Below are positions 7,465 to 35,278 of a stretch of 64,000 nt of DNA, in pieces. Below the pieces are notes generated by a model. It did no database searches. It saw only the letters and a list, made by a program, of their open reading frames with translations, and was not told the origin of the DNA. The stretch comes from an uncultured Planctomycetaceae bacterium (lineage in GTDB: Bacteria > Planctomycetota > Phycisphaerae > SM23-33), in NCBI GenBank assembly GCA_964472875.1, contig CAYYMD010000008.1, forward strand, positions 2,414 to 66,413, given 5' to 3'. Every line of letters begins with the position of its first letter. The first letter of the stretch is position 1. A program made the translations under genes and the position numbers.

Positions 7465-10245
7465 ATGAAAAAATCAATGTTTTATCTGTTGGTTACATCG
7501 GTGCTGGCGATGTCGCTGGTCTCGCCGGCGGAAGCCCGGAGCGAAAACGAACTGCTGGCGGTGCTGAAGAATCCGGATGCATCCCGCAAACAGAAACAGG
7601 ATGCCTGCCGCGAACTGTCGCGTGTGGCGACTGCCCGGTCGGTTCCCGTACTGGCCGAGCTGCTGGCGGACCCCAAACTGTCGCACATGGCCCGTTATGC
7701 GCTGGAGCCGATTCCCGATGACTCTGTGGATGCCGCACTGCGCGAGGCGCTGGGCAAGGTCGAAGGCGAACCGTTGGTCGGCGTTGTCGGCAGTATCGGT
7801 GTGCGCCGCGACGAAAAGGCAGTCCCGGCCCTGAAGCAGCTGCTTTCGCACGAGAATGCGGTTGTATCCGCCGCAGCCGCCCGCGCGCTGGGCAGTATCG
7901 GCAATACCGACGCGGCGGAGGCCTTGCAATCAGTGCTGGACGACAGTGACCCGTCGTCCAAAAAGTTCAAGGCGGTAAGTGAGGGCATATTCCGCTGCGC
8001 CGAACTGCTCGAGGCCGAAGGCGGCGCGAAAAAAGCCCTCGCGCTGTATGACCGCCTGCGCGAGTTTGACAAAGCTCCGCATCAAATCCGCACCGCCTCG
8101 CTGCGGGGCGCGGTGCTCCTAAGAGGCAATGAGGGCATACCCCTGTTAATGTCCGCCCTGCGTTCCGATGATTACCGTCGGTTCGCTTCGGCCGCGCGTA
8201 TATCGATGGAACTGGACGGCAAAAAAGTTACGCAGGCACTGGCCGGGGAGTTGGGGAAGCTTGGTCAGGATCGTCGGATAGTGGTGCTGCGCGTGATGGG
8301 TCAGCGCGGCGACATCTCCTGCGGCGATGCGATTATGAAGATATTGCGTTCGGACGAGCCGGCGGTCCGCGCGGCGGCGGCCAGGGCGCTGACTCGTCTG
8401 GGTTATGCTCCCGCTATAGCGGAACTGGAGAAATTGGCGGTTGAGGGCGATGGCGAGCTGGCGAATGTTGCCAAGTCATGCCTGGCCGGTTTTCCGAAGC
8501 AGGCCGCAAAAACCGCAATTATGGATATGCTCAAAAGCAAAGATGCCGGCTCCCGTCGCACGGGGGCGGAACTGAGCGCGAGCGTTACGCTCGACTCCGC
8601 CATACCCGTGCTGATGGAAAATGTGCTGGACAAGGATCAGTCCGTCGCGATGGCTTCGCTTCGGGCATTGCGCCAACTCGCCGGGCCGGACCATCTGCCG
8701 GAAATAATCGATCTGCTCGGCCGGATTGAGAGCGATAAAGTGCGGCGCGAGGCGGAGAAGGTTGCGATACGCGTCGGCAAGAAAGCACTGCATGCCAAAA
8801 CCAATCAAATACCGGCTAATGCGGACCTCCGGATAGATAAAGCCGTATACGGGGATTTGCCTGACGGCAAAAAGATGGACGTGACCGGTAAAGTGAAAAA
8901 TATGGTCAAACAGGGCAAATTCGAAATAGCCGCGACAAACGAGTTATTCGGCGACCCGGCCCCGGGCGTCAAAAAGAAGCTGAGTGTGAATTATACTGTC
9001 GAAGGTATTTCCGTCAGCCGGACGGCCGCCGAGGGCGAAACGGTGAGAATCCGTGTCCCGGCACAAGCCCAAAAAGGCGGCGGCATCGATAAGTTGATTG
9101 ATGCGATGGAGAAAGCCACCGGGCCGGACAAGGTGTCATTGTTGCGGGTGATTGCAGGCATCGGCGGCCCGAAGGCACTGGCCGCAGTGCGCAGCGCACT
9201 TGATTCGAAAAACGCCGCGATGCGCGAAGCGGCAACTCGGGCGTTGTTGAGTTGGCAGGACGGTTCGGCAGCGCCGGTTCTTCTTCGGCTTGCCGGTACG
9301 GCCGAGACGCAACGGCGTCGCACGCTGGCCTTGCGCGGCCTGGTGCGAGTGGTCGGCCTCTCGAAACAGCCCGTCCCCGAGAGAGTCGCTCTGCTGAACA
9401 AGGCCCGCGAGTTTGCCGAATCCGCTAAAGACAAACGCCTGTTGCTCAGCGGCTACGGCAATCTGGACCACCCGGCTGCGCTCAAAGCCGTGGTGAGCAT
9501 GCTGGATAACGAGTCAGTGCAGTCCGCGGCCGCGCACGCTGCAGTCAGGATTGCCGAGTCGATAGTTAAAAAACACCCGGACGCCGTGACCGGTGCGATG
9601 AGGCGCGTTATCGGGACGGTTTCGAATCAATCGATAAAAGACAAAGCCGGGGCGTTGCTGAATCAGGCCGAGGAACTCGCGTTAAAGAAAATCGGTTATC
9701 GCCGCGCCGGCGACTGGAAATCGCTTTTCAACGGGAAAGATCTCACCGGCTGGAGCAAGAGCGGCAACGGCGAATTCTACGTGGAAGACGGCCGCCTGGT
9801 CGGTACTCAGACCGACGGCAGGGGGGGCGACCTGTGGACCGGCGGCGAATTCGACGATTTCGAGTTGAAGGTCACGTATCGCGTGGACTGGCCGGCCAAC
9901 ACGGGCATATGGTACCGATGGAAAAACGGGAAAGGATATCAGTTCGATATCCTCAAATACAAAAAGCCCGTCGCTTTCAGCGGGACGCTTTACTGCCCCG
10001 GAAAGCTGTTTCTTTTCCGCAATACAGATGCATCGCTGGAGGACCGCGACGGCTGGAACGAGGCCAGAATACGCGCTGCAGGGTCCGATCTTACACAGTG
10101 GCTCAACGGCGTGTTAATCGGCTCGGCCTCGGATAAGCAGCTGCCTTCGGGCAAAGTCGGCATTCAGGTTCACGGCGGCAATCAGTTCAAGGGCATGAAA
10201 ATTATCATTAAAAGCATTGAAATCCGCCCGCTGAAAGCGCGTTAA
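7465..10245 (+). CDS. Secreted HEAT-repeat (PBS-lyase-like) protein with C-terminal DUF1080 (3-keto-disaccharide hydrolase/LamG-like) domain
   Basis: Signal peptide MKKSMFYLLVTSVLAMSLVSPAEA and multiple HEAT-like repeats (AAARALGSIG, VRAAAARALTRLG). The C-terminus carries the DUF1080 pattern GWSKSGNGEFYVEDGRLVG...FELKVTYRV...GKVGIQVHGGNQFKGMKIIIKSIEIRPL. DUF1080 proteins are commonly found next to Gfo/Idh/MocA oxidoreductases in Planctomycetota and Verrucomicrobiota. Confidence 0.75.
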   Translation: MKKSMFYLLVTSVLAMSLVSPAEARSENELLAVLKNPDASRKQKQDACRELSRVATARSVPVLAELLADPKLSHMARYALEPIPDDSVDAALREALGKVEGEPLVGVVGSIGVRRDEKAVPALKQLLSHENAVVSAAAARALGSIGNTDAAEALQSVLDDSDPSSKKFKAVSEGIFRCAELLEAEGGAKKALALYDRLREFDKAPHQIRTASLRGAVLLRGNEGIPLLMSALRSDDYRRFASAARISMELDGKKVTQALAGELGKLGQDRRIVVLRVMGQRGDISCGDAIMKILRSDEPAVRAAAARALTRLGYAPAIAELEKLAVEGDGELANVAKSCLAGFPKQAAKTAIMDMLKSKDAGSRRTGAELSASVTLDSAIPVLMENVLDKDQSVAMASLRALRQLAGPDHLPEIIDLLGRIESDKVRREAEKVAIRVGKKALHAKTNQIPANADLRIDKAVYGDLPDGKKMDVTGKVKNMVKQGKFEIAATNELFGDPAPGVKKKLSVNYTVEGISVSRTAAEGETVRIRVPAQAQKGGGIDKLIDAMEKATGPDKVSLLRVIAGIGGPKALAAVRSALDSKNAAMREAATRALLSWQDGSAAPVLLRLAGTAETQRRRTLALRGLVRVVGLSKQPVPERVALLNKAREFAESAKDKRLLLSGYGNLDHPAALKAVVSMLDNESVQSAAAHAAVRIAESIVKKHPDAVTGAMRRVIGTVSNQSIKDKAGALLNQAEELALKKIGYRRAGDWKSLFNGKDLTGWSKSGNGEFYVEDGRLVGTQTDGRGGDLWTGGEFDDFELKVTYRVDWPANTGIWYRWKNGKGYQFDILKYKKPVAFSGTLYCPGKLFLFRNTDASLEDRDGWNEARIRAAGSDLTQWLNGVLIGSASDKQLPSGKVGIQVHGGNQFKGMKIIIKSIEIRPLKAR

Positions 10246-11107: not shown

Positions 11108-12037
11108 ATGAAGACAGCGATAAATGAAAAAGCAGGTCCGGCCACAGTTCCTAAGGGCCTTAACGAAAGGCAGCGACAGCGTTACCTGTCGATACCGCAG
11201 GAAATGGATTACGTTTACGACGATTCCTTTTCGCAGCCGAATATCGAAGAAGAATTGTTCGAACAGCATAAAGAGGACTTGAACATACGTCAGTGGCGCA
11301 ATTTTCCGCAGGTGCCCGAAGACCGGCAACAGACTGCCGCGCCACGGAAGACGCCCACCAAGTCGCAGGAGCAACTACTTTTTTTGCGTTACAACTACGC
11401 ACGGTGGCGTCTGAGCGAACTCATCATCGCCCAGCAGCAAAAACGCGCCACGAAGAAGCGGGCCCTGGAGATGTTGCATTGGCACAGGCGCGTCCGCTGC
11501 GAACGCGCGAGTCTGTCGGCGGCCAACATGGCGCTGGTGGTGGCGATGGCCAAGCGGACGAAGATCCCCAACGTCGAATTCCCCGAGCTTATCTCCGAGG
11601 GAAACATGGCCCTGTTGCGTGCCATCGACAAGTTCGACGTTTCGCGCGGCTACAAGTTTTCCACCTACGCCTGCCGCGCGATACTCAAAGCGTTCAATCG
11701 ACTGGCCACGGTAACTGCGCGATACGTAAACCGCTATGGCGTGGAATACGATCCGGACATGGAACGCAGCGACTACGATGTCTACAAGCACGAGATGCAC
11801 AAGGACCTGGCGGTGGATGGCCTGCGGGAGATACTCGAAAAGAACCGCGCCCGGCTCAGCGACATGGAGAGCACAATCGTCAGAGAGCGTTTCGCCCTCA
11901 CGCCGGAAGGCCAAAAAGGCACGCTGAGCGAGGTCGGCGAAAAGGTCGGTCTGACCTCCGAACGCGTCCGGCAGATACAGAAAAACGCACTGACCAAAAT
12001 ACGCAAGGTGCTGAACGAAAAATATCTGGTGACATAG
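11108..12037 (+). CDS. Sigma-70-family RNA polymerase sigma factor (regions 2 and 4 present; atypical N-terminal region of about 130 aa)
   Basis: Region 2 FPELISEGNMALLRAIDKFDVSRGYKFSTYACRAILKAF and region 4 TLSEVGEKVGLTSERVRQIQKNALTKIRK. RBS GGGGAG upstream. It lies immediately after the Fur-like gene (3-nt gap). Confidence 0.8.
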   Translation: MKTAINEKAGPATVPKGLNERQRQRYLSIPQEMDYVYDDSFSQPNIEEELFEQHKEDLNIRQWRNFPQVPEDRQQTAAPRKTPTKSQEQLLFLRYNYARWRLSELIIAQQQKRATKKRALEMLHWHRRVRCERASLSAANMALVVAMAKRTKIPNVEFPELISEGNMALLRAIDKFDVSRGYKFSTYACRAILKAFNRLATVTARYVNRYGVEYDPDMERSDYDVYKHEMHKDLAVDGLREILEKNRARLSDMESTIVRERFALTPEGQKGTLSEVGEKVGLTSERVRQIQKNALTKIRKVLNEKYLVT

Positions 12038-14978: not shown

Positions 14979-15254
14979 TTATTCGCCCAGTTCGAACATC
15001 GTTTCCAGGTCGTGCCGGCTATACTGGCGGAATGCGATGAGCGTCTGTGTTTTGGTGATACCCTCGATTGCTATCATGTCCTCGGTTACGAGTTTGGCCA
15101 GGTCGTCGTTGTGACGAACGCGGGCGATTGCGACGAGGTCATAATCCCCGGCTACGCTGTAAACTTCGGTGATACCTTCGATGTTTAGGATTTCCTGCGA
15201 TGCGGCCGCAATCCGCTTCCGCTCGGCGTTTATTAGAATTATTGCCGTCACCAT
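14979..15254 (-). CDS. Stand-alone Lrp/AsnC-type ligand-binding (RAM) domain protein
   Basis: 91 aa: NIEGITEVYSVAGDYDLVAIARVRHNDDLAKLVTEDMIAIEGITKTQTLIA matches the AsnC C-terminal RAM-domain pattern. No HTH is present. Confidence 0.65.
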   Translation of the reverse strand: MVTAIILINAERKRIAAASQEILNIEGITEVYSVAGDYDLVAIARVRHNDDLAKLVTEDMIAIEGITKTQTLIAFRQYSRHDLETMFELGE

Positions 15255-15329: not shown

Positions 15330-15800
15330 CTAACCGTTGGCATTTTGGTCATCCCAGGAGGTCAGCAGTTCATATGCCTTCTGCGGGCTGTCGGCCTTCT
15401 CGAGCGATTCCTTGAGTTCCACATCCGTCATCGCCTTGCTCAGCCGGGCAAGCGCCTGGATGTGCGGGCCGGTCTTGTCCATGGGGCTGACCAGCAGGAA
15501 CACTATCGTGACGGGCTTGCCGTCCACACTCTCAAAGTCCACACCATCAGGAGCTTCGCCCAGCGCCATGGCCAGGTCCGCCGCCGCGGAGCTCTTGCCG
15601 TGCGGGATAGCCAATCCTTCGCCGATGCCCGTGGTCCGCGTTTTTTCCCGTTCCATGACGGCCTGGAGCATCCGGTCACGGTCATTCAATGTCCCGTCGG
15701 CGGCGAGAAGGTCAACCAGTTCCTCGATAACTCCGGCCTTGGTGTCCGAGGTCAGGGGAACTTTTATCCGCCGGGGTGTGAGAATGTCCGTCAATCGCAT
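15330..15800 (-). CDS. ptsN: PTS EIIA-Ntr nitrogen regulatory protein (PtsN-like, fructose/mannitol-type EIIA)
   Basis: EIIA type-2 domain with the phosphorylatable His context GIGEGLAIPHGK. Size 156 aa. Confidence 0.8.
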   Translation of the reverse strand: MRLTDILTPRRIKVPLTSDTKAGVIEELVDLLAADGTLNDRDRMLQAVMEREKTRTTGIGEGLAIPHGKSSAAADLAMALGEAPDGVDFESVDGKPVTIVFLLVSPMDKTGPHIQALARLSKAMTDVELKESLEKADSPQKAYELLTSWDDQNANG

Positions 15801-15894: not shown

Positions 15895-17166
15895 TCAAGT
15901 GCCCATGTGGAACGAGGCCAGGTATTCCTTCTGCTGCTTGGTCAGTTTATCTATGGTCACGCCCATGGTCTTAAGTTTCAACCGGGCCACCCAACTGTCT
16001 ATTTCGGCCGGAACGTGATGCACCTTAAGGGCGAGTTCTCCGGCGTTCTTGATGGCGTATTCGGTTGTCAGCGCCTGTGCGGCAAAGGACATATCCATCA
16101 CCGCCGCAGGATGGCCTTCTGCGCAGGCCAGGTTCACCAGCCGACCTTCGCCGAGGACGAATATGCGCTTGTCCTTCGGCAGGACGTACTCGTCCACGCC
16201 TTCTCGCACGCCTTTGTTGACTTTCTTGGACATCTTCTTCAGCGCCTCAAGATTCAGTTCGACGTTGAAGTGTCCGCTGTTGGCCACTATTGCGCCGTCC
16301 TTCATCGCCTTAAAGTGCGGTTCGTCTATGGCGTTTATGTCGCCGGTGGTGGTCACGAACAGGTCGCCTTCCTTGGCTGCCTGACGCATCTTCATCACGC
16401 GGTATCCGTCCATGGCCGCCTGCAGGGCGCGCACGGGGTCGACCTCGCAGATTATCACGTTGGCGCCCATGCCGCGGGCCCGCGTGGCCACGCCGAGTCC
16501 GCACCAGCCGTAGCCGGCCACGACGACGGTCTTGCCGGCCATCAGTATGTCCGTAGCGCGGATTACTCCGTCTATGGTGCTCTGGCCCGTGCCGTAACGG
16601 TTGTCGAACAGGTGCTTCGTTGCGGCGTCATTTACCGCGATTACGGGGAACTTCAGCACGCCGGCAGCGTCCATCGCCCGCAGGCGTATAACGCCGGTGG
16701 TTGTCTCTTCCATAGAGGCGGCGATGTCGCCGGCGTATTTGGCGAATTTTCCGTGCAGCGCGTTGACCAGGTCCGCCCCGTCGTCCATGGTGACCGACGG
16801 CTTGTGCTTACACGCGGCGGCGATGTGGTCGTAATAGCGCTTGCGGTTTTCGCCGTGGACGGAATAAACGCGAATATCGAAATGTTTAACCAGCGCCGCG
16901 GCCACGTCGTCCTGGGTGGACAGCGGGTTCGAAGCGCACAGAACAAGGTCGGCGCCGCCGGCCTTGAGTGTGCGGCATAGGTTCGCCGTCTCGGCGGTAA
17001 CGTGCAGGCAGGCGCTCATGCGATGACCTTTGAGCGGTTTTTCCTTGGTGAAGCGCTTGCGCACTTCGGTCAGGACGGGCATGTTGTTGTCCGCCCACAG
17101 AATCCGCCGCTTGCCTTCGGTCGCCAGTTTCAAATCCTTTACATCGTAATCTTTCGTCTTTGCCAT
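15895..17166 (-). CDS. ahcY: Adenosylhomocysteinase (S-adenosyl-L-homocysteine hydrolase)
   Basis: 423 aa. N-terminus [30 protein letters not shown]-binding [24 protein letters not shown] and catalytic-domain motifs throughout. RBS GAGGAGA upstream. Confidence 0.95.
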
Positions 17167-17339
17167 AGTCTCCTCGCGGTAGGGGGTTAGGGGGTAATCG
17201 AGATTAGCGTGATATTGTTATCTCTCGGGATGCATTTTGCAAACATGATTTTTCAGGTTTCTAAAAAGAAATTCCAAAATTACTAATCAGCGTTGCTGCC
17301 CCTGGCTCCGGAGAAAGGATTGGTGCCGGGCGATTGCGG

Positions 17340-18929
17340 TTATTTGCCCGGCCGCGACTTTTTATAGTCGTCCGGGTCTATGCCGAGTTTCTTTGTTTTG
17401 TAACGCAGTATTCGCGCGGTGGCGCCGAGTTCGCGTGCGGCGGCGGCCACGTTGCCGAATGTGCGCTTCAGCGCATCGACGATGATGTCGCGCTCGTAGA
17501 GCCCCACGCGTTCCTCGAGCGTGCCGGTGCCTGCGGTGTCGGAGAAATCTGACGTCTGAAGTGTGGGCGGCAGGTTGTGGCCGTGAATCACCCCGTCGGT
17601 GCTCAGCAGCACGGCCCGTTCGATGCAGTTCTCCAGTTCGCGAACGTTGCCCGGCCAGTGGTAAGCCATCATCATGTTGATGGCCGGCGTCGAGATGCGG
17701 CGGACGTCCTTGCCGAGTTTCTCCGCATAGCGCTCGACGAAATAATCCGCCAGCAGTAGAATGTCATCCTTCCGTTGGGTCAGGGTCGGCAGGTAAACAG
17801 GAAACACGTTGACGCGGTAATACAGGTCCTGGCGGAAGTCGCCGTCCGTGACGGCCTGCTCCAGGTCCTTGTTCGTGGCGCAGATTATCCGCACATCCGC
17901 ACGGCGTGCCTCGCTGGAGCCGACCCGCTCGTATTCCTTCTCCTGGATGACGCGCAGCAGTTTGACCTGCGTGGCGGGGGGAAATTCACCGATCTCGTCC
18001 AGGAACAGCGTGCCGCCGTCGGCCTGTTCTATTCGGCCAACGCGGTCTTTTACCGCCCCGGTGAACGCGCCTTCGACATGGCCGAACAGTTCGCTCTCCA
18101 AAAGCGATTCCTGAAGCGCCGCGCAGTTGACCTTTACAAACGGGCCCTTCGCTCGCGGGCTGGCGTAATGGATGGCGTGGGCGACCAGTTCCTTGCCGGT
18201 GCCCGTAGCCCCGCGGATGAGAACCGTGGTCTCCGAGGCCGCCACGCGGTAAATGGACCGGTACACTTCGCGCATGGCGTGTGAGTTACCGATTATGTTC
18301 TCCGGGCGGAAGCGGTCTTCCAGTTCCTCCCGCAGGCGGACGTTCTCGGCCTCCAGCGCTTCGCGCTCGGCGGCCAGTTGGCGACGAACCTCCACGTCGT
18401 TTGCGATCATGCTGGCCACGATGCTCAGTACCCGCAGGTCCTCTTCGAGCGAAACTGACTGGTCGAACACCCTGTCGGCCGAAAGCGCCCCGATTACTTC
18501 CTCCCCGCTGGTTATCGGCACGCAGACGAAACTTATCTCGTTCCGCGCCAGCTCTTTTCGCTTGTGGAGCTTGTCCAGGAACAGCGGCTCCTGAGAAATC
18601 TTCGGCACCACGGCCGGGCTGCCCGTGGCCACCACCCTGCCGGTGATGCCCTCGCCGCTGCGGTAACGGACCGCGCGCAGGTCTTCGTCGGAAAGATTGT
18701 GCGCGACTTCTATGAGCATTTCGTCGGCGCCCGGCTTCAGCAGAGATATCGTTCCCCGTGTCATGCCCAGGCGGTCGTGCAGAACGTCGAGGACCTCAGC
18801 CAGTACCTGACGCTGCCCTCCGCGAGAGGCCAGGATGCGGCTGATGGCGTACAGCGCCTCAAGTTCGGCCAGGTGCTTCTTCCTGCCTGCCTCGGCACGC
18901 CTGAAATCTTTACTCAAGGTATTATCCAT
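17340..18929 (-). CDS. Sigma54-dependent transcriptional activator with N-terminal GAF domain and C-terminal Fis-type HTH (NifA-type architecture; no receiver domain)
   Basis: GAF-like N-domain, then the AAA+ sigma54-interaction domain (Walker [15 protein letters not shown] loop [17 protein letters not shown]) and [26 protein letters not shown]. It is divergent from amtB. Confidence 0.9.
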
Positions 18930-18992
18930 GGCGATATTCCGAAATCAATAACATACTTATACCACATATTTGTAGTATCTCACAATAATATT

Positions 18993-19006
18993 CACAAAAT
19001 TGTAAG
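18993..19006 (+). promoter_or_regulatory. Candidate upstream activator sequence (palindromic CACAAwwTTGTAA) 91 bp upstream of the amtB sigma54 -24 element
   Basis: CACAAAATTGTAAG here versus CACAATATTGTAAT at 22162-22175 (12 of 14 identical). Both have an ACAA..TTGT dyad at the same distance (91 and 92 nt) from the respective -24 GG. Confidence 0.45.
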
Positions 19007-19082
19007 AATCATGCTAATCATCCATGAAGCCCATATTTCATAAATTACTGCTAATGAATGAATTATACAATATGATATTTTT

Positions 19083-19098
19083 TGGCACAGAATGTGCT
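19083..19098 (+). promoter_or_regulatory. Sigma54 (-24/-12) promoter of amtB-glnK-omp
   Basis: TGGCACAGAATGTGCT has the invariant GG (19084-85) and GC (19096-97) with the canonical 10-nt spacing, about 55 bp upstream of the proposed amtB start. Confidence 0.75.
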
Positions 19099-19154
19099 AT
19101 TAACGAATGTCGTGGTCGGGATGGGCCCGGCCGGGATATATGAAAGGATGTGAC

Positions 19155-20540
19155 ATGCGACGAAATACTCCTGAGGAAATTATGCCGCTTACCGGCTCAC
19201 GTAAATATGGGCGAAGATTTATCAAGCCGGCGCTTATGGCGGCCGCGGCCGTGTTGTTTGCAGCCCCGTCCCGCACATGGGCTTCCGAGTCGGCGGCCTC
19301 AGTCACCAGCGGACTGGACACTGTCTGGGTATTGATGGGCGCCTTTCTGGTGTTCTTTATGCAGGCGGGTTTCGGTATGGTCGAGGCCGGGTTTATTCGC
19401 GCTAAAAATGCCTGCAACATTCTGACCAAGAACTTTCTGGACTACTGCACCGCCAGTATAATGTTTTTCCTCGTCGGTTACGGATTCATGTTCGGGATCG
19501 GCAACGGTTTTATAGGCACCTCGGCGTTTGGCCTGTCCGATGCAGGCAGTTGTCCGGATAATCTGCCGCTTTGGGCGTTTTGGCTTTTTCAGGCCGCATT
19601 CTGCGGAGCGGCGGCGACCATTGTGGCCGGGGCCGTGGCCGAGCGCATGAAATTTTCCGCGTATCTGATGTACACGGTAGTGATATCCGCGTTGGTGTAT
19701 CCGATAATCGGCCACTGGGTATGGGGCGGCGGATGGCTTAGCGAGATGGGTTTCGCCGACTTCGCCGGTTCCACGGTGGTGCACGCCACCGGTGGATGGG
19801 CCGGATGTGTCGGTGCGTTACTGTTGGGACCGCGGATAGGCAAATTCAGGCCTGACCGCACAGCAAACGTCATCCCCGCCCACAACATCCCGTTGGCGTC
19901 CATCGGCGTGTTCATTCTGTGGTTCGGATGGTTTGGTTTTAATCCCGCATCGACGCTCAGTGTGGGTGACGGATCACTGATAGGCCTTGTGGCCATCAAT
20001 ACCAATCTCGCCGCTGCTGCCGGTGCCATAAGTGCTATGGTGACTGTGTGGCTGCGATATGGCAAGCCGGACCTGTCGATGACAATGAACGGCGCACTGG
20101 CCGGCCTGGTTGCCATTACAGCCCCGTGCGCGTTCGTGGCGCCGTGGGCGGCGATAATCATCGGACTGGTCGGCGGTGTGATAGTGGTCTTTGGCGTGGG
20201 GCTGCTGGACCGCATCGGCATAGACGACCCGGTCGGTGCGGTTCCTGTCCACGGCATGAACGGCATCTGGGGCACGCTTGCGGTGGGCCTGTTCGGCAGG
20301 GAGGCGCTTGGCCTGGCCGGGGAAGGTCTGCTGTTCGGCGGCGGGCGGCAGTTGGCGGTCCAGGCGCTGGGCACGTTTGTCTCGGCTGGCTTTGCGTTCC
20401 TGGCGATGGGAGCTGTGTTTATGCTGATAAAAGTAACCGTTGGCCTGCGCGTCAGCCGGGAAGAGGAACTGCGAGGTCTGGACATAGGCGAACACGGCAT
20501 GGAGGCCTACGGCGGCTTCCAGATATTCTCGAACGTTTAG
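19155..20540 (+). CDS. amtB: Ammonium transporter (Amt family) with signal peptide
   Basis: Amt signature regions (DFAGSTVVHATGGWAG, GPRIGKF, NGALAGLVAIT, 11 TM helices). The start is set at the ATG at 19155 (RBS AAGGA 7 nt upstream) because the ORF-track start at 19107 overlaps the predicted sigma54 transcription start. Confidence 0.9.
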   Translation: MRRNTPEEIMPLTGSRKYGRRFIKPALMAAAAVLFAAPSRTWASESAASVTSGLDTVWVLMGAFLVFFMQAGFGMVEAGFIRAKNACNILTKNFLDYCTASIMFFLVGYGFMFGIGNGFIGTSAFGLSDAGSCPDNLPLWAFWLFQAAFCGAAATIVAGAVAERMKFSAYLMYTVVISALVYPIIGHWVWGGGWLSEMGFADFAGSTVVHATGGWAGCVGALLLGPRIGKFRPDRTANVIPAHNIPLASIGVFILWFGWFGFNPASTLSVGDGSLIGLVAINTNLAAAAGAISAMVTVWLRYGKPDLSMTMNGALAGLVAITAPCAFVAPWAAIIIGLVGGVIVVFGVGLLDRIGIDDPVGAVPVHGMNGIWGTLAVGLFGREALGLAGEGLLFGGGRQLAVQALGTFVSAGFAFLAMGAVFMLIKVTVGLRVSREEELRGLDIGEHGMEAYGGFQIFSNV

Positions 20541-20583
20541 AACGTTTAACAAGCGTTAAACCCACAATAGAAGGAACAGAACC

Positions 20584-20925
20584 ATGAAACTTATAATCGC
20601 ATATATCCAGCCGGAGAAACTTAACGACGTAAAGCAGGCCCTCTATGCGGCCGAGGTGTACAAGTTATCGGTCACCAACGCCATGGGCTGCGGGCAGCAA
20701 AAGGGATACACCGAGACTTACCGCGGCGTTGAGATGGAAGTGAACCTGCTAAAGAAGGTGCGCCTGGAGATAGCAGTAAACCAGGATTTCGTCCAGCCGA
20801 CGATAGACGCTATAGTCAGCGGCGCCCGCACGGGTAACATAGGCGACGGGAAGATATTCGTCATTCCGCTGGAAAGGTGTTTCCGTATCCGCACCGGCGA
20901 AGACGGAAACGAGGCCATTGGTTAA
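20584..20925 (+). CDS. glnK: Nitrogen regulatory protein P-II
   Basis: 113 aa with [20 protein letters not shown] and the T-loop [12 protein letters not shown] with the conserved Tyr51. It lies immediately downstream of amtB. Confidence 0.95.
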
Positions 20926-20956
20926 CGAGCGAACAGCAATCTAAGGAGAAATTGAA

Positions 20957-21971
20957 AATGAAAAGTACGGACACACAAGCGACACTAAAAATTGCAGGGT
21001 TAGCCCTTATTCTGACGCTGCTGACGCCGATGGTCACCATCATGGCCGAGGAAACGGAAGACGGCGTAAAGACCTGGCTGGAATCCGCACCAGTTGCAGC
21101 TAAAGACACGGATGATTCGAAAATTCCTCTCGATGCCGAGCAAGAGCACGGCTATGAGAAACCGATTCCGCTTACATTCAGCATCGAATACACCCTGGTC
21201 AGCGATTACATATTCCGCGGCATCAACTTCAGCGAATACGCCGGGGAAGGCAGAGAGAAGCCGAATCACCAGATGGCGGCCGGCGTGGAGTATGACACCG
21301 GCGATTTCGGTGCGGTGGGTTTTTCGGCATGGTTCGAGTGGTATGCCGACCAGGAAGTTTTTACGCCCAACGAAAATACCCATCTTCAGGAAGTGGACTA
21401 CACGGTGTACTGGTCGTATGAGATACCGGACACTCCTGTGACAGTCGAACTGGGTTGGATAGCATATACCTTCCCGCCGCTGGCCGGCGACGCCCACGAC
21501 ACAAATGAGGTCTATGCGAAGGTGAGCGTGGACGACGGTTTCATCTTCGGCACCGACGAACCGGTGCTGAATCCGTACGTTTACTACGGGCTGGACGTGG
21601 ACGACGGGCAGCAGGGCTCGTGGCTGGAGTTCGGAGTCAGTCACGATTTCGTCCTGGCCGACTGCAAGGCGATGAAGTCCGCGCCAATCCTGAAGGATAT
21701 CACCGTCACGCCATCGGCTGTACTGGCTGTGGATAACAGATACCTGGACAAGTTCGACGTCCTCGGCGACGGCACCGAGCAGGAGGCCATGCGGCTGGCT
21801 TACATGCAGTACGGCCTGAACGTCAGTTACGATTTGTCTTCCGGCCTGAATATCCCGCCACAGTATGGAGCGATGACGCTGTCGGGCTTTGTGAACTTTA
21901 ACCAGGCGTTCCGCGACGACCTGCTCAACGATGAGATGTGGGGCGGCGTCTCGCTCGGGTATGAATGGTAA
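20957..21971 (+). CDS. Putative outer-membrane beta-barrel (porin-like) protein encoded inside the amtB-glnK operon
   Basis: Signal peptide MKSTDTQATLKIAGLALILTLLTPMVTIMA and alternating hydrophobic/aromatic beta-strand pattern. The C-terminus ends GGVSLGYEW, an aromatic residue typical of OM barrels. RBS AAGGAG upstream, and the gap from glnK is only 31 nt. Confidence 0.5.
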
Positions 21972-22000
21972 TCAAACGAAAGACAGCAGGATCCGCCGTA

Positions 22001-22039
22001 GTCCCGGCGCGTACTTGGCAAAGTAGTACGCGCCGGGAC
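22001..22039 (+). terminator. Long perfect hairpin (15-bp stem, 8-nt loop) downstream of the omp gene, nested in a second imperfect inverted repeat
   Basis: GTCCCGGCGCGTACT-tggcaaag-AGTACGCGCCGGGAC, flanked by GGATCCGCC...GGCGGATTCC. There is no T-tract. It is likely a transcript-end or stabilising structure. Confidence 0.5.
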
Positions 22040-22161
22040 ACGAGGCGGAACCAAGGCGGATTCCGTTCCTGCCGTTTTCAATAGTTAAAATAATATTAGC
22101 CCCAAAAATGAAGCAAATCATCTCTAATCCGACAATAATGTAACTATTATACCTATATAAT

Positions 22162-22175
22162 CACAATATTGTAAT
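22162..22175 (+). promoter_or_regulatory. Second copy of the candidate UAS (CACAATATTGTAAT) 92 bp upstream of the glnA sigma54 -24 element
   Basis: See 18993-19006. ACAATATTGT is a perfect 10-bp palindrome. Confidence 0.45.
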
Positions 22176-22252
22176 ATTATCGTGCACGCAACTTTTGGTA
22201 CGTGTTTTTATAACGCTCTATCATAAAGGCATTTGTAAACTTATAACCTTTC

Positions 22253-22268
22253 TGGCACGGCGTGTGCA
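22253..22268 (+). promoter_or_regulatory. Sigma54 (-24/-12) promoter of glnA
   Basis: TGGCACGGCGTGTGCA has GG (22254-55) and GC (22266-67) at canonical spacing, about 85 bp upstream of the glnA ATG. Confidence 0.75.
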
Positions 22269-22351
22269 ATATTAAATGGAAACAGGCCGGATCTATTGTA
22301 GGCAGGCCGGCGATAGTCTGAGAAATTGAAGATATGCAAAGGAGCATTACA

Positions 22352-23764
22352 ATGACACCAAAGGAATTCTTCGAGTATGCCGAGAAAAACGGCGCAAAAA
22401 TGGTCGACCTGAAATTCGTCGACATGCTGGGCACGTGGCAGCACTGTTCCCATCCCATCGACACGTGGGATGAGGAGACATTCACTGAAGGCATGGGCTT
22501 CGACGGTTCGTCCATTCGCGGTTGGCAGGACATCCACCAGTCCGACATGATCGCCATTCCCGACCCGGACACGGCGCAGATAGACCCGTTCTTCGCCCGT
22601 CCTACCGTCAGCGTTCTGGCCAACATCAAGGACCCCACCAACGGTGAGGATTACTCCCGCGACCCGCGCCATGTAACGCGCCGTGGTGAGCAGTACGTCA
22701 GGGAATCCGGCCTGGCCGACACGGTTTTCATCGGACCCGAGCCGGAGTTCTTCATTTTCGACGAGGTCCGCTATGAACAGAACCAGCACCGCGGATTCTA
22801 CGAGATTGACTCTGTCGAAGGCGCGTGGAACACCGCCCGGTTCGAAGAACCGAATCTCGGCTACAAGCCGTCGTTCAAGGGCGGGTACTTTCCGGTCTGC
22901 CCCACGGACACCTACCACGACCTCCGCGGCGAGATGGTGGAGGAACTTCAAAAGGTGGGCATCGTCATCGAGGCCCACCACCACGAGGTGGCCACGGCCG
23001 GGCAGTCCGAGATCGACATGAAGTTCGAGCCGCTGACGAAGATGGCAGACGCTTTCATGTGGTACAAGTACATCATACGCAACGTCGCTCGTCGCAACGG
23101 CAAGACCGTAACGTTCATGCCCAAGCCGGTCTTCGAAGACAACGGCAGCGGTATGCACACACACCTTTCGCTGTGGAAGGACGGACGGCCGTTGTTCGCC
23201 GGTGACAAGTACGCCGGCCTGAGCGAAATGGCGATACACGCCATAGGCGGAGTGCTCAAGCACGCCCCTGCGATACTGGCCTTCGCCGCGCCGACGACGA
23301 ATTCCTACCGACGCCTGGTTCCGGGCTTCGAGGCGCCGGTGAACTTGGTTTACTCGGCGCGGAACCGTTCTGCGGCGATTCGCATACCGATGTACTCGTC
23401 CAGCCCCAAGGCCAAGCGCATCGAGTTCCGTTGCCCGGATCCGACCGCCAACGGTTACCTGGCGTGGACGGCGATACTGATGGCCGCGGTCGACGGCATC
23501 AACAACAAGATAGACCCGGGCAAACCGCTGGACGTAGACATCTACGAGTTGTCACCGGAAGAACTGGCCAAGTATCCGCACACGCCGGAATCGCTGGCCG
23601 ACGCCATCGATGCGCTCGAGGCCGATTACGAATTCCTCACCGAAGGCGACGTCTTCAGCGAGGACCTTGTCGGTGCGTGGATAAACTGGAAGCGGGAAGA
23701 AGAACTCAAGCCCATGGCGCTTCGCCCGCACCCCCACGAGTTCCACATTTATTACGACAGTTAA
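22352..23764 (+). CDS. glnA: Glutamine synthetase type I
   Basis: GSI motifs throughout (N-terminal beta-grasp [27 protein letters not shown], catalytic [10 protein letters not shown]). The adenylylation-loop Tyr context [11 protein letters not shown] matches the E. coli NLYDLPPEE loop. The ATG at 22352 is preferred (RBS AAAGGAG 7 nt upstream). Confidence 0.95.
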
Positions 23765-23790
23765 ACCGACAGGCGAAAAATTCATCTAAG

Positions 23791-23826
23791 GCGCGGCGGC
23801 GTGAAAGCGCCGCCGCGCTAATATAA
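23791..23826 (+). terminator. Rho-independent terminator after glnA
   Basis: GCGCGGCGGCG-tgaaa-CGCCGCCGCGC is followed by TAATATAAA (A/T-rich tail). Confidence 0.6.
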
Positions 23827-23989
23827 ACCCACAAAACCCAAACTTTATATGCGTTGCGCTTGTAATATAAGTATAACTTATAAAAACAATTAGATTATAA
23901 GACAATAAAACTTTGAAAAATAACCTAAAATGTAATGGAAGAACCGAGTTAGATATAAGGCAATCGAATATTCAGCACAGGAAGCAGCA

Positions 23990-28535
<4,546 letters not shown>

Positions 28536-28543
<8 letters not shown>

Positions 28544-29960
28544 GACTACCGGATTCATCGAATACGCTCGACACGCCCCGCCACACCGATCACCCCAGGT
28601 GCGAGTAAAAGACTACTTCGAGGTCACTTTGCCGTTGTCCCCGCAGGAGATAAACCGGCAGGCGGCACGTTGCATGGACTGCGGCATACCGTTTTGCCAC
28701 GGGATGGGCTGCCCGCTGGCCAACCGGATACCGGAGTTCAACGATTTGGTTTATCGCGGGCGGTGGCGCGAGGCGGCCGCGAATCTGCACTCGACCAATA
28801 ACTTCCCTGAGATAACCGGGCGGGTCTGTCCGGCGCCCTGCGAGGCCGCCTGCACACTCAATATTGACGCCGAGCCGGTCACCATCGAGCACATCGAGTA
28901 CCAGATAGCCGAGCGCGCCTGGGCTCAGGGCTGGGTTAAGCCCCGCCCGGCCGATAAGAAAACCGGCCAGAAGGTCGGCGTGATCGGCTCCGGCCCGGCC
29001 GGCCTGGCCGCCGCACAGCAACTGGCCAGAGCGGGTCACGAGGTGACCGTCTTCGAGAAAGATGACCGCATCGGCGGGCTGCTGCGATACGGCATACCCG
29101 AGTTCAAACTCGAAAAACGCATACTGGACCGGCGACTGAAGCAACTGGCTGCCGAGGGCGTAAAATTTGAAACCGATGTTACAGTCGGAGTGGATATCTC
29201 GGCGAGGTATCTTCGCAAGATGTTCGACGCCATTTGTCTGACTATGGGCTCGGGTCAGCCGCGAGACCTCGGCGTGCCCGGCCGCGGGCTGGAGAACGTC
29301 GTGTTCGCGATGGACTTCCTCAAACAGCAGAACCTCCGCGTCGCCGGCGACAGCATCGACGGCCGCGAGGCCATCTCGGCCCGGGATAAAATCGTCGTTA
29401 TCATTGGCGGCGGCGACACCGGCAGCGACTGCGTGGGCACAGCCATCCGCCAGGGCGCAAAGGAAGTGCACCAGTTCGAGATTCTTCCCAAACCGCCTGA
29501 GACGAGCAATCCTCAGACGCCCTGGCCGACATGGCCGAATATCCTGCGGACCTCCACAAGCCATGAGGAGGGCTGCAAGCGCCGCTGGTCGGTGGCGACC
29601 AAGTCGTTGTCCGGCGTGGGCGTGCGGGTTAACGAGTTGCACGGATGTGAAGTCGAGTGGGGCAAGGGGCCGCACGGGCCTGAAATGAAGGATGTTCCAG
29701 GCACGGAATTTTCAATGAAGGTCGACATGGTGGTGCTGGCGATGGGCTTCGTCCACGTGGTTCAAGAAGGGCTGGTCGATGCGCTCGGTCTGGACCTGGA
29801 CGAACGAGGCAACATTGCCGTGGCCGATTACCACACAAACAGCGAGGGCGTCTTCGCCGCCGGCGATGCAAAACGAGGCGCTTCGCTTGTCGTTCATGCA
29901 ATCAATGAAGGAAGGAAAGCAGCAGAGGCGATAAATAATTGGTTAAATACGAAATTCTAA
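28536..29960 (+). CDS. gltD: Glutamate synthase small subunit (NADPH-dependent)
   Basis: Fe-S cysteine clusters (CMDCGIPFC, CPAPCEAAC) and the FAD/NAD(P) Rossmann motifs GVIGSGPAGLAAA and IIGGGDTGSDCVGTA. The GTG start overlaps the gltB stop by 8 nt, and GGAGGAGG precedes it. Confidence 0.95.
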
Positions 29961-30041: not shown

Positions 30042-32633
30042 TTATTCAAGATAAAGCACTGCCCGCTGGTCGAGCGAATTGGCATTCAGTTTGAGCGTCG
30101 GTGAGTTCGGCAGGTCGGCGACGTCTATCACGCGCACGGCGTCGGTCCATTTTTCGGCCGAGGGTATAAGTTCGGCCAGTTTGTTAGGTGCTGATTCGAA
30201 AAATTCATCGTTCAGCCGGTTACCTGCCTTGTCAGGGAAGATGGCCAGGTAAAGTATGTCCCTCTCGACAAGGTCGGAGAAGTAATGCGTGCCCAGCGAT
30301 ACATCGGGCACGAAGTCCTCGCGCATGGCTACGATTTCGCCAAGCACGTCCACGGTGCTTATGTCGCCGAAGGCCGCGGGAACGCCCAGCGACGGAGTGG
30401 TCGTGCCCCACCTGCCGGGGCCCAGAAGAATGGTGACCAGTTTATTTTGACCTTGCAGGTGAGTGAGTTTCCCTATCAGACGGGCCACGCTGTGGCGGTC
30501 GCCAATAGGCAGTTTGCCGTAAACTTGTGGCGCGACATATATGATTCGCTCGATATCGACGATGCGGCTTTGGCCGATGACCGCCCCGCGGGCGTCGAGG
30601 ATAAGTTTATCATCGGCGATGTTCTGCGGCGGTGCGACGATACGCCCGCCGCCTTTGACCTGTAGCGGGCGGCACTGGACCAGGTTCACCCTGCACCCCT
30701 TGCCGTCGGGCAAACCCCTGCGGGGCAGGTTCGCTGTGAATTCCACGTCCACCGGGTAGTCGTACGCTTCCTGAAGCGTGGCCAGCATTTTTCGCATATC
30801 GGCGGCAAAACTTGTCTCACTTAGAAGCTGCTCAAACGTCAGCACCATGTGGCCGCCTTCTGGTCCGGTTGGCGATGCGAACAGACTCACATTCGGAACT
30901 TCGCTGTGCTGAAGTATGTCCTCGAACCGAACCGAGACGAGTTGGTTGGCCTCGAGGTCGAGCACATCCACCTTTCGTTGGGCGTACTGGCGGGCCTCGT
31001 CGAAGTTCGCCTCGGGGCGTTTCTGCGGAACGTTCAGCGCCACCACGCGAGTGTAGTCGTCGTCCCAGCGGTTTACCGCCCGCGTGCCCAGGCCGAACAC
31101 CACGCGTATCATGCCGGCCGAGGCGTCTATATCCTCGTTCCAGACGTACGGATTGAACGAAAATCCCACACCTGCTATCTGCGGATAGAACAGTCGTCCA
31201 CGGAACCCGCCGGAAACACGCTGGACCAGCAGGGCCATCTGTTCGTCCCGGTCAAGCAGGCCGCGCTCCGCGCGATAGCGAAGGGCCTTTTCGCTCATGG
31301 TGCTGGCATAGATTGTCCGCACGGCCGAGACGAAATCCTTCAGCCGTTTCTGGCGCGAACCCTGGTTCGCGCAGAAGACGCTCTCGTACTTGCCCGCGAA
31401 GGCGTTGCCAAAATTATCCTCCAGCAGCGACGACGACCGCACGATAATCGGCGACTGGCCGAAGTAATCCAGCATCTGGGAGAACTGCTCGTTGATGTAT
31501 TCGGGAAACTCGCCGGTGAGAATTCGCTGGCGGGCGCGTTCGGCGCCCTCGAGGAAGTTGTCGGGGTCGCGCTGCTTCTGCCTGTCCCACCACAGGCCGT
31601 TGCGGACAAGGTAGGTGTAGAAAACGTCCGACCCGATAAAGAACGAATCATGCGGCTCGAGCATTTCGCGCCACCGCGAATCCTGTCCGGCCAGTATCGC
31701 ACGCGCCAGCAGCATGCCCACCGACTTGCCGCCGATCAGCCCGGTCCCTATCATCCGTCCGCCGATTTTCAGCGCGCCGGGCAGGTCCATGTGCCGTGTG
31801 ACCAGTTCGAATACACGCTCGTCGCGCGTGATCATCATTCGCACGATGCGATGAAAGTATTTTTTGTACTCCTCGCCGTCAATGTCGCCGTTGCGGCCGA
31901 GAAGTCCCCGTGCGGCCAGGAAAGTTCTTTCCCATATTCCCTGTCCTTCAGCCGAAGGGCCGCGAAGCCGCCAGGGCAGCGAGGTGAGTATCTGCGAAAC
32001 CGTGCTGCTTTCGGTCACGGGCCGGAACTGCCCGCCTTCCCACGTGTGCAGCATGTACATCGTCGGCGAGTATCGCTGCTGGACCTTCACCGGGTAAATG
32101 TAGCGGTTGTCTTCTCGACTGTAAACGTCAACCAGAACCTGAGCGGTGTTCATAATCGCAGCCACGGTCTGGCCGGCGTGACGGTTGCGGAGCAGCGCGA
32201 AATACGCTATGGCCTCCACGTCCAGCAGGTAAGGGCAGGTGAGCATGAAAAAGTTAGCCAGCATCTCGTCGCTGTACCAGTCAACCGACAGGTCCGACAG
32301 GCAGTCGAAAACATAATAGCCGCCATTTCCGGTTTCCTCGATGACCTTGTGTATCTCGGCCAGGAATGTTTCAAAGCCGGCTTCCGGGTGAAGTTCATGA
32401 ACCTCCGCGCCGGCATCGTCAGGCACAATTGGCGGATGTTTGGCGAAGCGGAAGTAAATGAGTTTCTGGCCGAGCTTCGGCGCCACCCGCGCGAACGGCT
32501 CGACCAGCGGGACGTAATCGTCAACCGACTCCACCTGCCAGACCAGGTTGTCGCCGGGTATCAATCCCTTTATGACGTCGTCAAGGCCCGTCAGGCCCGT
32601 GCTGAGTCGTGAATCTATCTGTGTTTGTGCCAT
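30042..32633 (-). CDS. PEP/pyruvate-binding (PPDK_N ATP-grasp-like) domain protein with an N-terminal degenerate KaiC/RecA-like domain
   Basis: Residues from about 290 onward carry PPDK_N-like motifs (IGGRMIGTGLIGGKSVGMLL, IIVRSSSLLEDNFGNAFAGKYESV, MALLVQRVSG). The N-terminal 200 aa resemble a KaiC/RadA fold (TGLTGLDDVIKGLIPGDNLVW) but lack the Walker A GxxGxGKT. No phospho-His swivel domain was recognised. Confidence 0.55.
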   Translation of the reverse strand: MAQTQIDSRLSTGLTGLDDVIKGLIPGDNLVWQVESVDDYVPLVEPFARVAPKLGQKLIYFRFAKHPPIVPDDAGAEVHELHPEAGFETFLAEIHKVIEETGNGGYYVFDCLSDLSVDWYSDEMLANFFMLTCPYLLDVEAIAYFALLRNRHAGQTVAAIMNTAQVLVDVYSREDNRYIYPVKVQQRYSPTMYMLHTWEGGQFRPVTESSTVSQILTSLPWRLRGPSAEGQGIWERTFLAARGLLGRNGDIDGEEYKKYFHRIVRMMITRDERVFELVTRHMDLPGALKIGGRMIGTGLIGGKSVGMLLARAILAGQDSRWREMLEPHDSFFIGSDVFYTYLVRNGLWWDRQKQRDPDNFLEGAERARQRILTGEFPEYINEQFSQMLDYFGQSPIIVRSSSLLEDNFGNAFAGKYESVFCANQGSRQKRLKDFVSAVRTIYASTMSEKALRYRAERGLLDRDEQMALLVQRVSGGFRGRLFYPQIAGVGFSFNPYVWNEDIDASAGMIRVVFGLGTRAVNRWDDDYTRVVALNVPQKRPEANFDEARQYAQRKVDVLDLEANQLVSVRFEDILQHSEVPNVSLFASPTGPEGGHMVLTFEQLLSETSFAADMRKMLATLQEAYDYPVDVEFTANLPRRGLPDGKGCRVNLVQCRPLQVKGGGRIVAPPQNIADDKLILDARGAVIGQSRIVDIERIIYVAPQVYGKLPIGDRHSVARLIGKLTHLQGQNKLVTILLGPGRWGTTTPSLGVPAAFGDISTVDVLGEIVAMREDFVPDVSLGTHYFSDLVERDILYLAIFPDKAGNRLNDEFFESAPNKLAELIPSAEKWTDAVRVIDVADLPNSPTLKLNANSLDQRAVLYLE

Positions 32634-34505: not shown

Positions 34506-35060
34506 ATGCTGCGGTTCCAGAAGGGCGACCGCGAGGCCTTCGACGAACTGGTGCGGCGCAACACGCCACGCGTGCACGCACTGTTGTACCGATTTTTGAG
34601 CGGCTCGGACCAGATCGAGGATTTGACGCAGGAAGTATTCATGCGGGTTTTCCGCAATGCCCACCGTTACAGGCCCAGGGCCAAGTTCGGCACCTGGCTC
34701 TACAGAATAACGGCCAACCTGGCATTCAACGTATTGCGCGGCCGCAAGCGGATTAAATTCTCGCAGCTGGAAACTTCCGAAGACAGCGAGGGCTATGTTG
34801 CCAGGAATATATCGGATTCTTCCGCGCCGATGCCGAATGAGGGGCTCGACGGCAGTGAGATGCGCCAGAAGGTGATCGATGCCCTCGACACACTACCGGA
34901 GGATCAGAAAGTCGCGATTATCCTCAATAAGTACGAGCGCAAAACCCACGGGGAAATCGCCGAAATACTCAACAGGTCGCCCATGGCGGTCAAAAGTCTG
35001 CTCAGCCGGGCCAGGAAAAATCTGCACGAAAAAATTGAGGGATATTTGAAAGGTCGATAA
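34506..35060 (+). CDS. ECF (sigma-70 group 4) RNA polymerase sigma factor
   Basis: Region 2 EDLTQEVFMRVFRNAHRYRPRAKFGTWLYRITANLAFNVLR and region 4 ERKTHGEIAEILNRSPMAVKSLLSRARKNL. Confidence 0.9.
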   Translation: MLRFQKGDREAFDELVRRNTPRVHALLYRFLSGSDQIEDLTQEVFMRVFRNAHRYRPRAKFGTWLYRITANLAFNVLRGRKRIKFSQLETSEDSEGYVARNISDSSAPMPNEGLDGSEMRQKVIDALDTLPEDQKVAIILNKYERKTHGEIAEILNRSPMAVKSLLSRARKNLHEKIEGYLKGR

Positions 35061-35278
35061 TATATGACAAAGGGACAAATTTTTTTTCAAATTAGCGAGA
35101 CCCTTTTACGCTTGGTGAGTTAAATAATATGTGACGCACGAAATGTCGGGTTCGCCCGCCTAAGGCGTCTCGGCCGCCGAGAAAGCGTGCGGCGTTGCAT
35201 TTCGCGATACAGGATTGACTTGAGGATTTGCAAAAGAAAGACAGCCGGAAATTTTATCGGACCGGCGCAAGTAAATTT

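Follow-up and report, generated by a model that had tools for sequence, protein, structure and literature searches.

We describe a nitrogen-assimilation gene cluster in a 64-kb stretch of DNA (from contig CAYYMD010000008.1; hereafter, the window) of an uncultured Planctomycetaceae bacterium. A gene for a sigma-54 enhancer-binding protein (EBP) of the NifA family lies divergent from an amtB-glnK-porin operon, which is followed by glnA. Comparison with related loci makes it likely that this adjacent activator, which carries a GAF domain, serves the sigma-54 promoters of both the operon and glnA, and that an NtrBC system does not. The link between the clade of the activator and assimilation genes is seen in the gene neighbourhoods and in a phylogenetic split from nif-linked NifA proteins.

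Sigma-54 control of glnA and amtB is in itself textbook; what is unusual is the type of activator. The first-pass annotation of this DNA, which had called the arrangement not textbook, was right about the activator but not about the sigma-54 control. The gene layout that it gave, a NifA-type activator divergent from amtB-glnK-omp with glnA after it, was recovered with Pfam and NCBIfam profiles, the match for the omp gene being weak.

Sigma-54 promoters and paired upstream palindromes

The amtB-glnK-porin operon and glnA are each preceded by a −24/−12 motif match on the coding strand, TGGCACAGAATGTGCT at 19083–19098 (+) and TGGCACGGCGTGTGCA at 22253–22268 (+), with predicted transcription starts near 19108–19110 and near 22279, respectively. 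Both elements have GG at −24, GC at −12 and the exact spacing that had been claimed for them, and they are located about 56–66 bp upstream of start codons with good ribosome-binding sites (RBS). The bare motif is not above chance: with up to one mismatch, three matches were found in the window, compared to 2.2 expected. The elements at 19083 and 22253 are the only intergenic ones among these. The third match, at 26061, lies inside gltB, has no upstream sites and was treated as a chance occurrence. Since the motif count is at chance level, the significance of the promoters comes from their position, their conservation and the sites upstream of them.

The low count would also fit a different view, in which the −24/−12 matches are accidental and sigma-70 promoters in the AT-rich spacers drive amtB and glnA. 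Sigma-70-like hexamers are indeed more frequent in the AT-rich intergenic DNA than expected (nine, compared to 4.1). This view is nevertheless highly improbable, considering the orientation of both elements and their distance from the start codons, their conservation in the closest relative amid diverged surroundings, and their recurrence, together with a pair of activator sites, in over 25 loci, where they precede the same gene families (see below). One sigma-70-like match (18948→18921) was considered as the activator's own promoter and rejected, since its −10 hexamer falls downstream of the start codon. No Rfam family, such as the glutamine riboswitch, matched the leaders above noise in the region 17000–24200.

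Upstream of each −24 element lie two 12-bp palindromes with an ACA-N4-TGT core, in the window of the form (C/G)ACA-N4-TGTA and with the consensus (T/C/G)ACA-N4-TGTA, which we regard as putative activator sites. In the amtB promoter, the distal site CACATATTTGTA (18963–18974) is centred at −114.5 from the T of TGGCAC, and the proximal site CACAAAATTGTA (18993–19004) at −84.5, 30 bp from the distal one. In the glnA promoter, the corresponding sites are GACAATAATGTA (22131–22142), centred at −116.5, and CACAATATTGTA (22162–22173), centred at −85.5, with 31 bp between them. A spacing of 30 or 31 bp corresponds to three helical turns. The 14-mer TCACAA(A/T)ATTGTAA is present in both promoter regions, where it constitutes the promoter-proximal site of each pair. 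The pattern TYACAANNTTGTAR occurs in two places in the window (0.37 expected), one 5′ of each −24 element, and the only two pairs of ACA-N4-TGT separated by 30 or 31 bp in the whole window are those at the amtB and glnA promoters. The canonical NifA site, TGT-N10-ACA, is absent from both promoter regions; its single match in the window (16076) falls in a coding region. The NtrC site, TGCACC-N5-GGTGCA, had no match with up to three mismatches in either 18930–19083 or 21972–22253. The distal amtB site is 34 bp from the start codon of the activator gene, so that autoregulation of the activator would be possible.

We then compared the promoters with those of loci in relatives that carry homologues of the activator, denoted by L-numbers. 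The nearest relatives are metagenome-assembled Planctomycetota, mainly Phycisphaerae or Sedimentisphaerales. Gene contexts were cross-checked by tblastn and by Pfam tables of the encoding contigs, while the AmtB labels in the loci scanned for pairs were assigned by eye from the sequences. The most similar locus, L001, has an activator that is 89% identical and displays full synteny with the window. Its orthologous −24/−12 sites are found at 7830 (−) for amtB and at 4599 (−) for glnA, and the counterpart of the distal amtB site is at −115. The intergenic DNA has diverged between the window and L001, except for the palindromes, the −24/−12 element and the leader with its RBS. This pattern of conserved sites amid divergence constitutes a phylogenetic footprint.

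The same geometry, with the distal site at −114 to −119 and the proximal site at −83 to −88, was found in 11 further promoters from loci with activators 70–89% identical to that in the window. The module precedes amtB and glnA in L001, the porin gene in L003, two amtB-glnK operons and glnA in L081, porin-amtB-glnK and glnN (glutamine synthetase III, GSIII) in L084, glnA twice in L090, and glnN in L092. (L090 has the module, meaning site pair and −24/−12 element together, twice in tandem before one glnA gene, at 8577 and 8824 on the minus strand.) A shifted version occurs in loci from Lentisphaerota, Verrucomicrobiota and Kiritimatiellia, which belong to a separate activator clade (clade C, described below) with ≈52% identity to the window protein. 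Here, the two sites, mostly TACA-N4-TGTA, are also 30–31 bp apart, but are located at −125 to −139 and −95 to −108 before sigma-54 sites. This module was found before amtB (L043, L049, L053, L054, L055, L057, L070, L073 and L076), glnA (L079), glnN (L057 and L067) and gltB (L042). The −24/−12 element is thus conserved at orthologous promoters in L001, L003, L081, L084, L090, L092 and many clade-C loci. Considering all loci together, the core motif was present upstream of 24 of the 66 strong −24/−12 sites, compared to 3.2% of background windows. Conversely, a −24/−12 site follows 30 of the 112 pair matches; by chance, ≈1 would be expected, a value extrapolated from the density of sites in the window and not from shuffled sequences.

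We considered the possibility that the promoters are sigma-54-dependent, but that the palindromes are bound as operators by some other protein, for instance a repressor or a global regulator of nitrogen, while the EBP binds elsewhere or acts from solution. ACA-N4-TGT is short and AT-rich. Furthermore, the recognition helices of the helix-turn-helix (HTH) domain, when compared by eye, are not obviously more similar between clade C and the window's own clade (clade A) than between clade A and its nif-linked sister, clade B, even though A and C share the T…A-flanked site, and genes resembling that for the repressor NrpR are present in some clade-C islands. Paired and phased sites upstream of the −24 element are typical of EBP enhancers, as exemplified by NtrC at glnAp2, and the palindromes conform to this arrangement in their position (−85 to −140), their three-turn pairing and their strict phasing. 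In most loci the EBP gene borders the intergenic region in which they lie, and no other regulator gene is consistently linked to them. A different binding protein is consequently quite unlikely, and the adjacent activator is the better candidate for these sites.

The activator and its clades

The activator gene (17340–18929, −) encodes a protein of 529 amino acids, comprised of a GAF sensor domain, a coiled-coil linker, an AAA+ domain with an intact GAFTGA motif and a Fis-type HTH (Pfam GAF, Sigma54_activat, AAA_lid_14 and HTH_8). The protein is thus of the one-component type. There was no Pfam match to Response_reg, and the N-terminus is occupied by GAF, in agreement with the earlier observation that a GAF domain takes the place of the NtrC receiver. 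The NCBIfam model for NifA, TIGR01817, gave by far the highest score, 527.3 bits (cut-off 528.85), with profile positions 3–438 of 534 matched. The next-best EBP model scored 386 bits, and the NtrC models 335.6 (cut-off 558.6). NifA was also the best full-length match in the PDB (9qq6_C), and the identity to the NifA proteins of Methylococcus and Rahnella is ≈42–47%. The GAF domain and linker helix by themselves (residues 21–195) are most similar to Nlh1 from Aquifex aeolicus (PDB 4g3k, residues 5–175; phmmer E = 1.7e-32), compared to only ≈1e-17 for the NifA GAF domain. We found no NifL-like or kinase gene beside the activator gene. Within the window there is no second EBP, making the activator the sole one there, and no rpoN gene.

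A phylogeny of the homologues contained three clades. Clade A, which includes the window and its Phycisphaerae-type relatives, had a bootstrap support of 97. Clade B (support 81) is its sister, with ≈60% identity to A and a support of 100 for A+B. Clade C, from Lentisphaerota, Verrucomicrobiota and Kiritimatiellia, was supported at 99 when L044 was left out. The NifA proteins of Methylococcus and Rahnella and the D. vulgaris protein DVUA0143 fell outside A+B+C, a grouping with a support of just 64%.

The gene contexts follow this division. Clade-A genes are divergent from amtB, glnK, porin, glnA or glnN genes in 10 of about 14 loci, and no nifH was found within 8–10 kb of any recovered clade-A homologue or anywhere in the window. 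In at least 14 loci, by contrast, a clade-B gene immediately precedes nifH-nifI1-nifI2-nifDK; in Pontiella, it lies behind a nifV-like gene. The neighbours of clade-C genes are amtB-glnK-porin, gltBD, glnA, gdhA, an aspC-like gene or purF. Some genomes contain paralogues from two clades: L003 (clade A) and L012 (clade B) both come from the metagenome-assembled genome (MAG) CAZOVB01, and Pontiella has B and C copies ≈2.4 kb apart (L034, L038, L059 and L072). CAWDQE01 has two clade-B copies, of which L030 is nifH-linked and L037 is not.

Two other neighbourhoods were noted among these loci. A sub-clade of clade B from Planctomycetia MAGs (L013, L014, L016, L026 and L037) has no linkage to nif or assimilation genes, its activator genes being flanked by a gene for a sigma-70 factor and one for an AAA-type ATPase of ≈500 amino acids. 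The NrpR-like genes encode a protein of ≈334 amino acids (L055, 9762–10766 (−), and L077; cluster c68), which by eye resembles the archaeal repressor. They adjoin gdhA and the clade-C activator gene in Lentisphaerota and Verrucomicrobiota MAGs.

Both NCBI and JGI name close relatives of the activator “nif-specific transcriptional activator NifA”. Taken at face value, the protein would be a true nif-specific NifA for nitrogenase genes elsewhere in the genome, and the sigma-54 promoters of amtB and glnA would be driven by an unlinked regulator of the NtrC type. The score at the TIGR01817 threshold, the NifA match in the PDB and the restriction of our view to 64 kb of the genome are all consistent with such an arrangement. 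We consider it improbable, however, because clade A lacks the nifH linkage that is so direct in its sister clade, and because MAGs with paralogues from two clades exist. In addition, there is no NtrC-type site in either promoter region, the palindromes track the adjacent activator gene across phyla, and the nifH promoters of clade B contain a differently flanked repeat, GACA-N4-TGTC or GGAAATAATTGTC. The shared site pairs, their recurrence in several phyla, the lack of nif linkage of clade A in the recovered loci and the missing NtrC sites thus argue for the NifA-style rather than NtrC-style control that had been suggested for this cluster.

Several points weigh against the assignment of these promoters to the adjacent activator. 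No nitrogen gene adjoins the activator gene in the clade-A loci L004, L005, L089 and L091. The TIGR01817 scores of the three clades overlap (496–546 bits), regardless of nif linkage, and were discarded as a clade discriminator. Because the NifA model scores the clades alike, an “assimilation” type cannot be separated from a “nif” type by sequence alone. The phylogeny was made by neighbour-joining only, with bootstrapping, from 89 sequences. The connection between the protein and the palindromes is one of co-occurrence, and another factor could bind them. A canonical ntrBC pair may be present elsewhere in the genome, of which the window covers 64 kb. Finally, the regulation model as a whole derives from sequence comparison, and the signals proposed for it (see below) were borrowed from proteobacterial NifA.

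Cysteines were also considered as an oxygen-sensing motif that might separate the nif clade from the assimilation clade. C136, C269 and C435 are common to all sequences, and none is clade-specific, so this candidate was rejected.

The clade-B paralogues have the same architecture as the window activator, and their putative sites contain the same ACA-N4-TGT core. However, the nifH promoters in clade-B loci have G…C-flanked or GGAAATAATTGTC-type repeats. The nifH upstream regions of MAGs from planctomycete diazotrophs (L008, L015, L022, L023, L024, L029, L033 and L035) contain repeats such as GACAATTCTGTC, GGAAATAATTGTCAC and GACAATTATTTCC. Since these differ from the proteobacterial TGT-N10-ACA, they suggest a different NifA site in the planctomycete phylum.

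T…A-flanked pairs, of the type found at assimilation genes, are present before the −24/−12 elements of clade-B activator genes in L009 (≈1660), L012 (≈7690–7730) and L023 (≈7590–7630). In L012, for example, TACAATTTTGTA and GACAAAAATGCA are located at −148 and −118. Of these three loci, L023 alone is nifH-linked, and the position of its pair would suit a divergent promoter just as well. No clear target gene for the latter emerged, only short unconserved open reading frames and an integrase-like fragment. Thin as this evidence is, it raises the possibility of a cascade like NtrC→NifA, with the assimilation paralogue activating the nif one. A wider scheme would extend to PVC bacteria in general (here meaning Phycisphaerae and other Planctomycetota, Kiritimatiellia, Lentisphaerota and Verrucomicrobiota). 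In this scheme, a GAF-sensing NifA paralogue with a paired TACA-N4-TGTA enhancer, and not NtrBC, would control amtB-glnK-porin, glnA, glnN and gltBD, and in diazotrophs the nif-linked paralogue would be placed below it in a cascade. With all its parts taken together, this scheme is tentative and on balance doubtful.

Neighbouring genes

The window has a G+C content of 53–63%. Between 15.3 and 30 kb, the gene order is EIIA-2 (−), ahcY (−), activator (−), followed on the plus strand by amtB, P-II, the porin-like gene, glnA, gltB and gltD, as assigned with Pfam and NCBIfam profiles. The amtB gene for the ammonium transporter (19155–20540, +; Pfam Ammonium_transp, 4.8e-131) is part of an open reading frame that extends from 19107. 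Since transcription is predicted to begin right at the ATG at 19107, this codon is unlikely to be the translation start. We moved the start to the ATG at 19155, which is preceded by AAAGGA and which, like its RBS, is conserved in L001; translation most likely begins here. The glnK gene (20584–20925, +; Pfam P-II) encodes a P-II signal protein, in which inspection of the sequence showed that the T-loop tyrosine is present (ETYRG).

The third gene of the operon (20958–21971, +), which starts at ATG 20958 with AAGGAG in front, encodes a secreted, porin-like protein of 337 amino acids with a signal peptide. From its weak Pfam match to Gcw_chp (E = 4.9e-4), it is probably an outer-membrane porin with a weak likeness to Gcw_chp/TorF. 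Its orthologues adjoin the activator gene in L001, L002, L003, L040 and L084, and clade-C loci have an analogous porin-like gene, coding for 250 amino acids, directly after glnK. A GC-rich hairpin 3′ of the porin gene, gtcccggcgcgtact…agtacgcgccgggac (22001–22039, +), was found by inspection and, judging from its sequence, probably terminates the amtB operon. The glnA gene (22334–23764, +; NCBIfam TIGR00653, 644.6 bits) encodes a type I glutamine synthetase and is likewise followed by a GC hairpin (23790–23819, +; by inspection). Both hairpins lack T-tracts and were missed by a terminator scan that relies on them.

Genes for glutamate synthase, gltB (23990–28543, +) and gltD (28536–29960, +), were identified with NCBIfam. 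The first-pass annotation had correctly placed gltBD downstream (23990–29960), but overstated the case by counting these genes into a probably complete ammonium-assimilation regulon, as there is no sigma-54 promoter before gltB here. The 226-bp gap 5′ of gltB contained neither a detectable −24/−12 element nor a pair of activator sites. Because of this, and because of the hairpin after glnA, gltBD is adjacent to the sigma-54 regulon but is not shown to be in it.

On the other side of the activator gene are ahcY (15895–17166, −; Pfam/NCBIfam) and a gene for a stand-alone EIIA-2 protein of the phosphotransferase system (15330–15800, −; Pfam PTS_EIIA_2). The latter had been called ptsN. Its membership in the EIIA-2 family was upheld, but its identity as PtsN was not, since its score against TIGR01419 (85.8) is below the cut-off of 138.7. 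The best NCBIfam match was to FruA-IIA, of the fructose type (97.3; cut-off 103.5). After the EIIA-2 gene, at 14979–15254 (−), is a gene for a 91-residue protein that consists of an AsnC/Lrp-type ligand-binding domain alone, without an HTH.

Beyond gltD, an 863-residue protein (30042–32633, −) contains only the PPDK_N (ATP-grasp) part of the phosphoenolpyruvate (PEP)-utilising enzymes and scores far under all PEP synthase and Rph cut-offs. It recurs in or beside the nitrogen islands of relatives (L006, 9585–12149; L057, 1887–4445; L065, 2–2407; L081, 584–3235). In L057, its gene has its own −24/−12 site (1841, +), in an intergenic region shared with the glnN promoter and a site pair. A protein with an FHA domain (39976–41076, −) matched OdhI, the 2-oxoglutarate dehydrogenase inhibitor, with 37 bits (cut-off 200), which probably reflects no more than the FHA domain. 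The window also contains an ECF-type sigma factor gene with an adjacent anti-sigma factor gene (34506–35060 and 35228–35839, +) and, separately, an RpoH/RpoD-like gene of the sigma-70 family (11108–12037, +).

Proposed regulation and implications

In the mechanism that we propose, activator dimers would bind the two palindromes ≈115 and ≈85 bp upstream of each −24 element. The bound activator would assemble into an active ring and contact the sigma-54 holoenzyme at TGGCAC-N5-TGTGC(T/A), spending ATP to open the amtB-glnK-porin and glnA promoters, presumably when fixed nitrogen is scarce. It would thereby fill the role of enterobacterial NtrC. Because the activator lacks a receiver domain, and neither NifL nor a kinase is encoded nearby, the nitrogen signal would have to enter through the GAF domain. 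This domain could bind 2-oxoglutarate directly or be contacted by the P-II protein GlnK. Since GlnK is encoded in the very operon proposed to be regulated, such contact would create a feedback loop. In NifA proteins that lack NifL, P-II acts on the GAF domain. The GAF domain of A. vinelandii NifA is reported to bind 2-oxoglutarate (Little & Dixon 2003, as cited in PMC12998190). By analogy with these proteins, each of the two signals is a possibility, at most somewhat short of an even chance.

The activator shares with proteobacterial NifA the order of its GAF, AAA+ and Fis-type HTH domains and its one-component, GAF-sensing character. It differs in having no nif linkage, in having amtB-glnK-porin and glnA as its predicted targets, in the ACA-N4-TGT pairs in place of TGT-N10-ACA, in the lack of an adjacent NifL partner and in a linker without a clade-specific cysteine motif. 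NtrC (NRI, GlnG) is the functional analogue: it activates the sigma-54 promoters of glnA and amtB/glnK from paired sites about three turns apart, and has the AAA+ and HTH_8 modules in common with the window activator. However, the latter has a GAF domain instead of the phosphorylatable receiver and no adjacent NtrB kinase, and its promoters lack the NtrC site.

Nlh1 (PDB 4g3k and 4g3w) is the closest solved structure of a GAF domain with a coiled-coil signalling helix. It comes from another phylum, and the comparison covers only the GAF construct, which is the sole part in the PDB. Nlh1 is a NifA-like homologue from a non-diazotroph, for which a role in assimilation rather than fixation has been “speculated”, as has a mechanism in which its GAF/coiled-coil dimer keeps it inactive until an unknown ligand binds; its targets and ligand were never established (review PMC9866876).

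Nitrogen control, a paradigm of regulation in textbooks, is known almost wholly from work on Proteobacteria, Firmicutes, Actinobacteria, Cyanobacteria and Archaea. In sediments, oceans and guts, PVC bacteria abound as degraders of polysaccharides, and diazotrophs have recently been recognised among them. Full-text searches found no literature on nitrogen regulation of this kind in Planctomycetota, Verrucomicrobiota, Lentisphaerota or Kiritimatiellota. The genome paper on Pontiella agarivorans merely lists nifA, the work on Methylacidiphilum assumes the proteobacterial NtrBC/NifA scheme, and the GAF-type D. vulgaris protein DVUA0143 has been assigned to nitrogenase in the literature. One-component EBPs of the NifA family with GAF domains, sigma-54 control of glnA and amtB, and a speculated assimilation role in Aquifex are already known. 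New are the concrete regulon, the enhancer motif and its geometry, the breadth across PVC bacteria and the split from the nif-linked paralogues.

If correct, the assignment would provide the first regulon model for PVC bacteria, complete with activator, DNA site, promoter geometry and targets. It would show that the general nitrogen regulator can be a NifA-type protein, the nif-specific paralogue having specialised later, or the other way round. Synthetic biology would gain a compact nitrogen sensor made up of a single protein, with its enhancer defined. It would also flag a systematic annotation error, the “nif-specific NifA” of NCBI and JGI; NifA-like genes are not separable by KEGG-orthology (KO)-based surveys (PMC12903952). 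Under the wider scheme with its cascade, “NifA” calls in PVC metagenome bins would be no evidence of diazotrophy.

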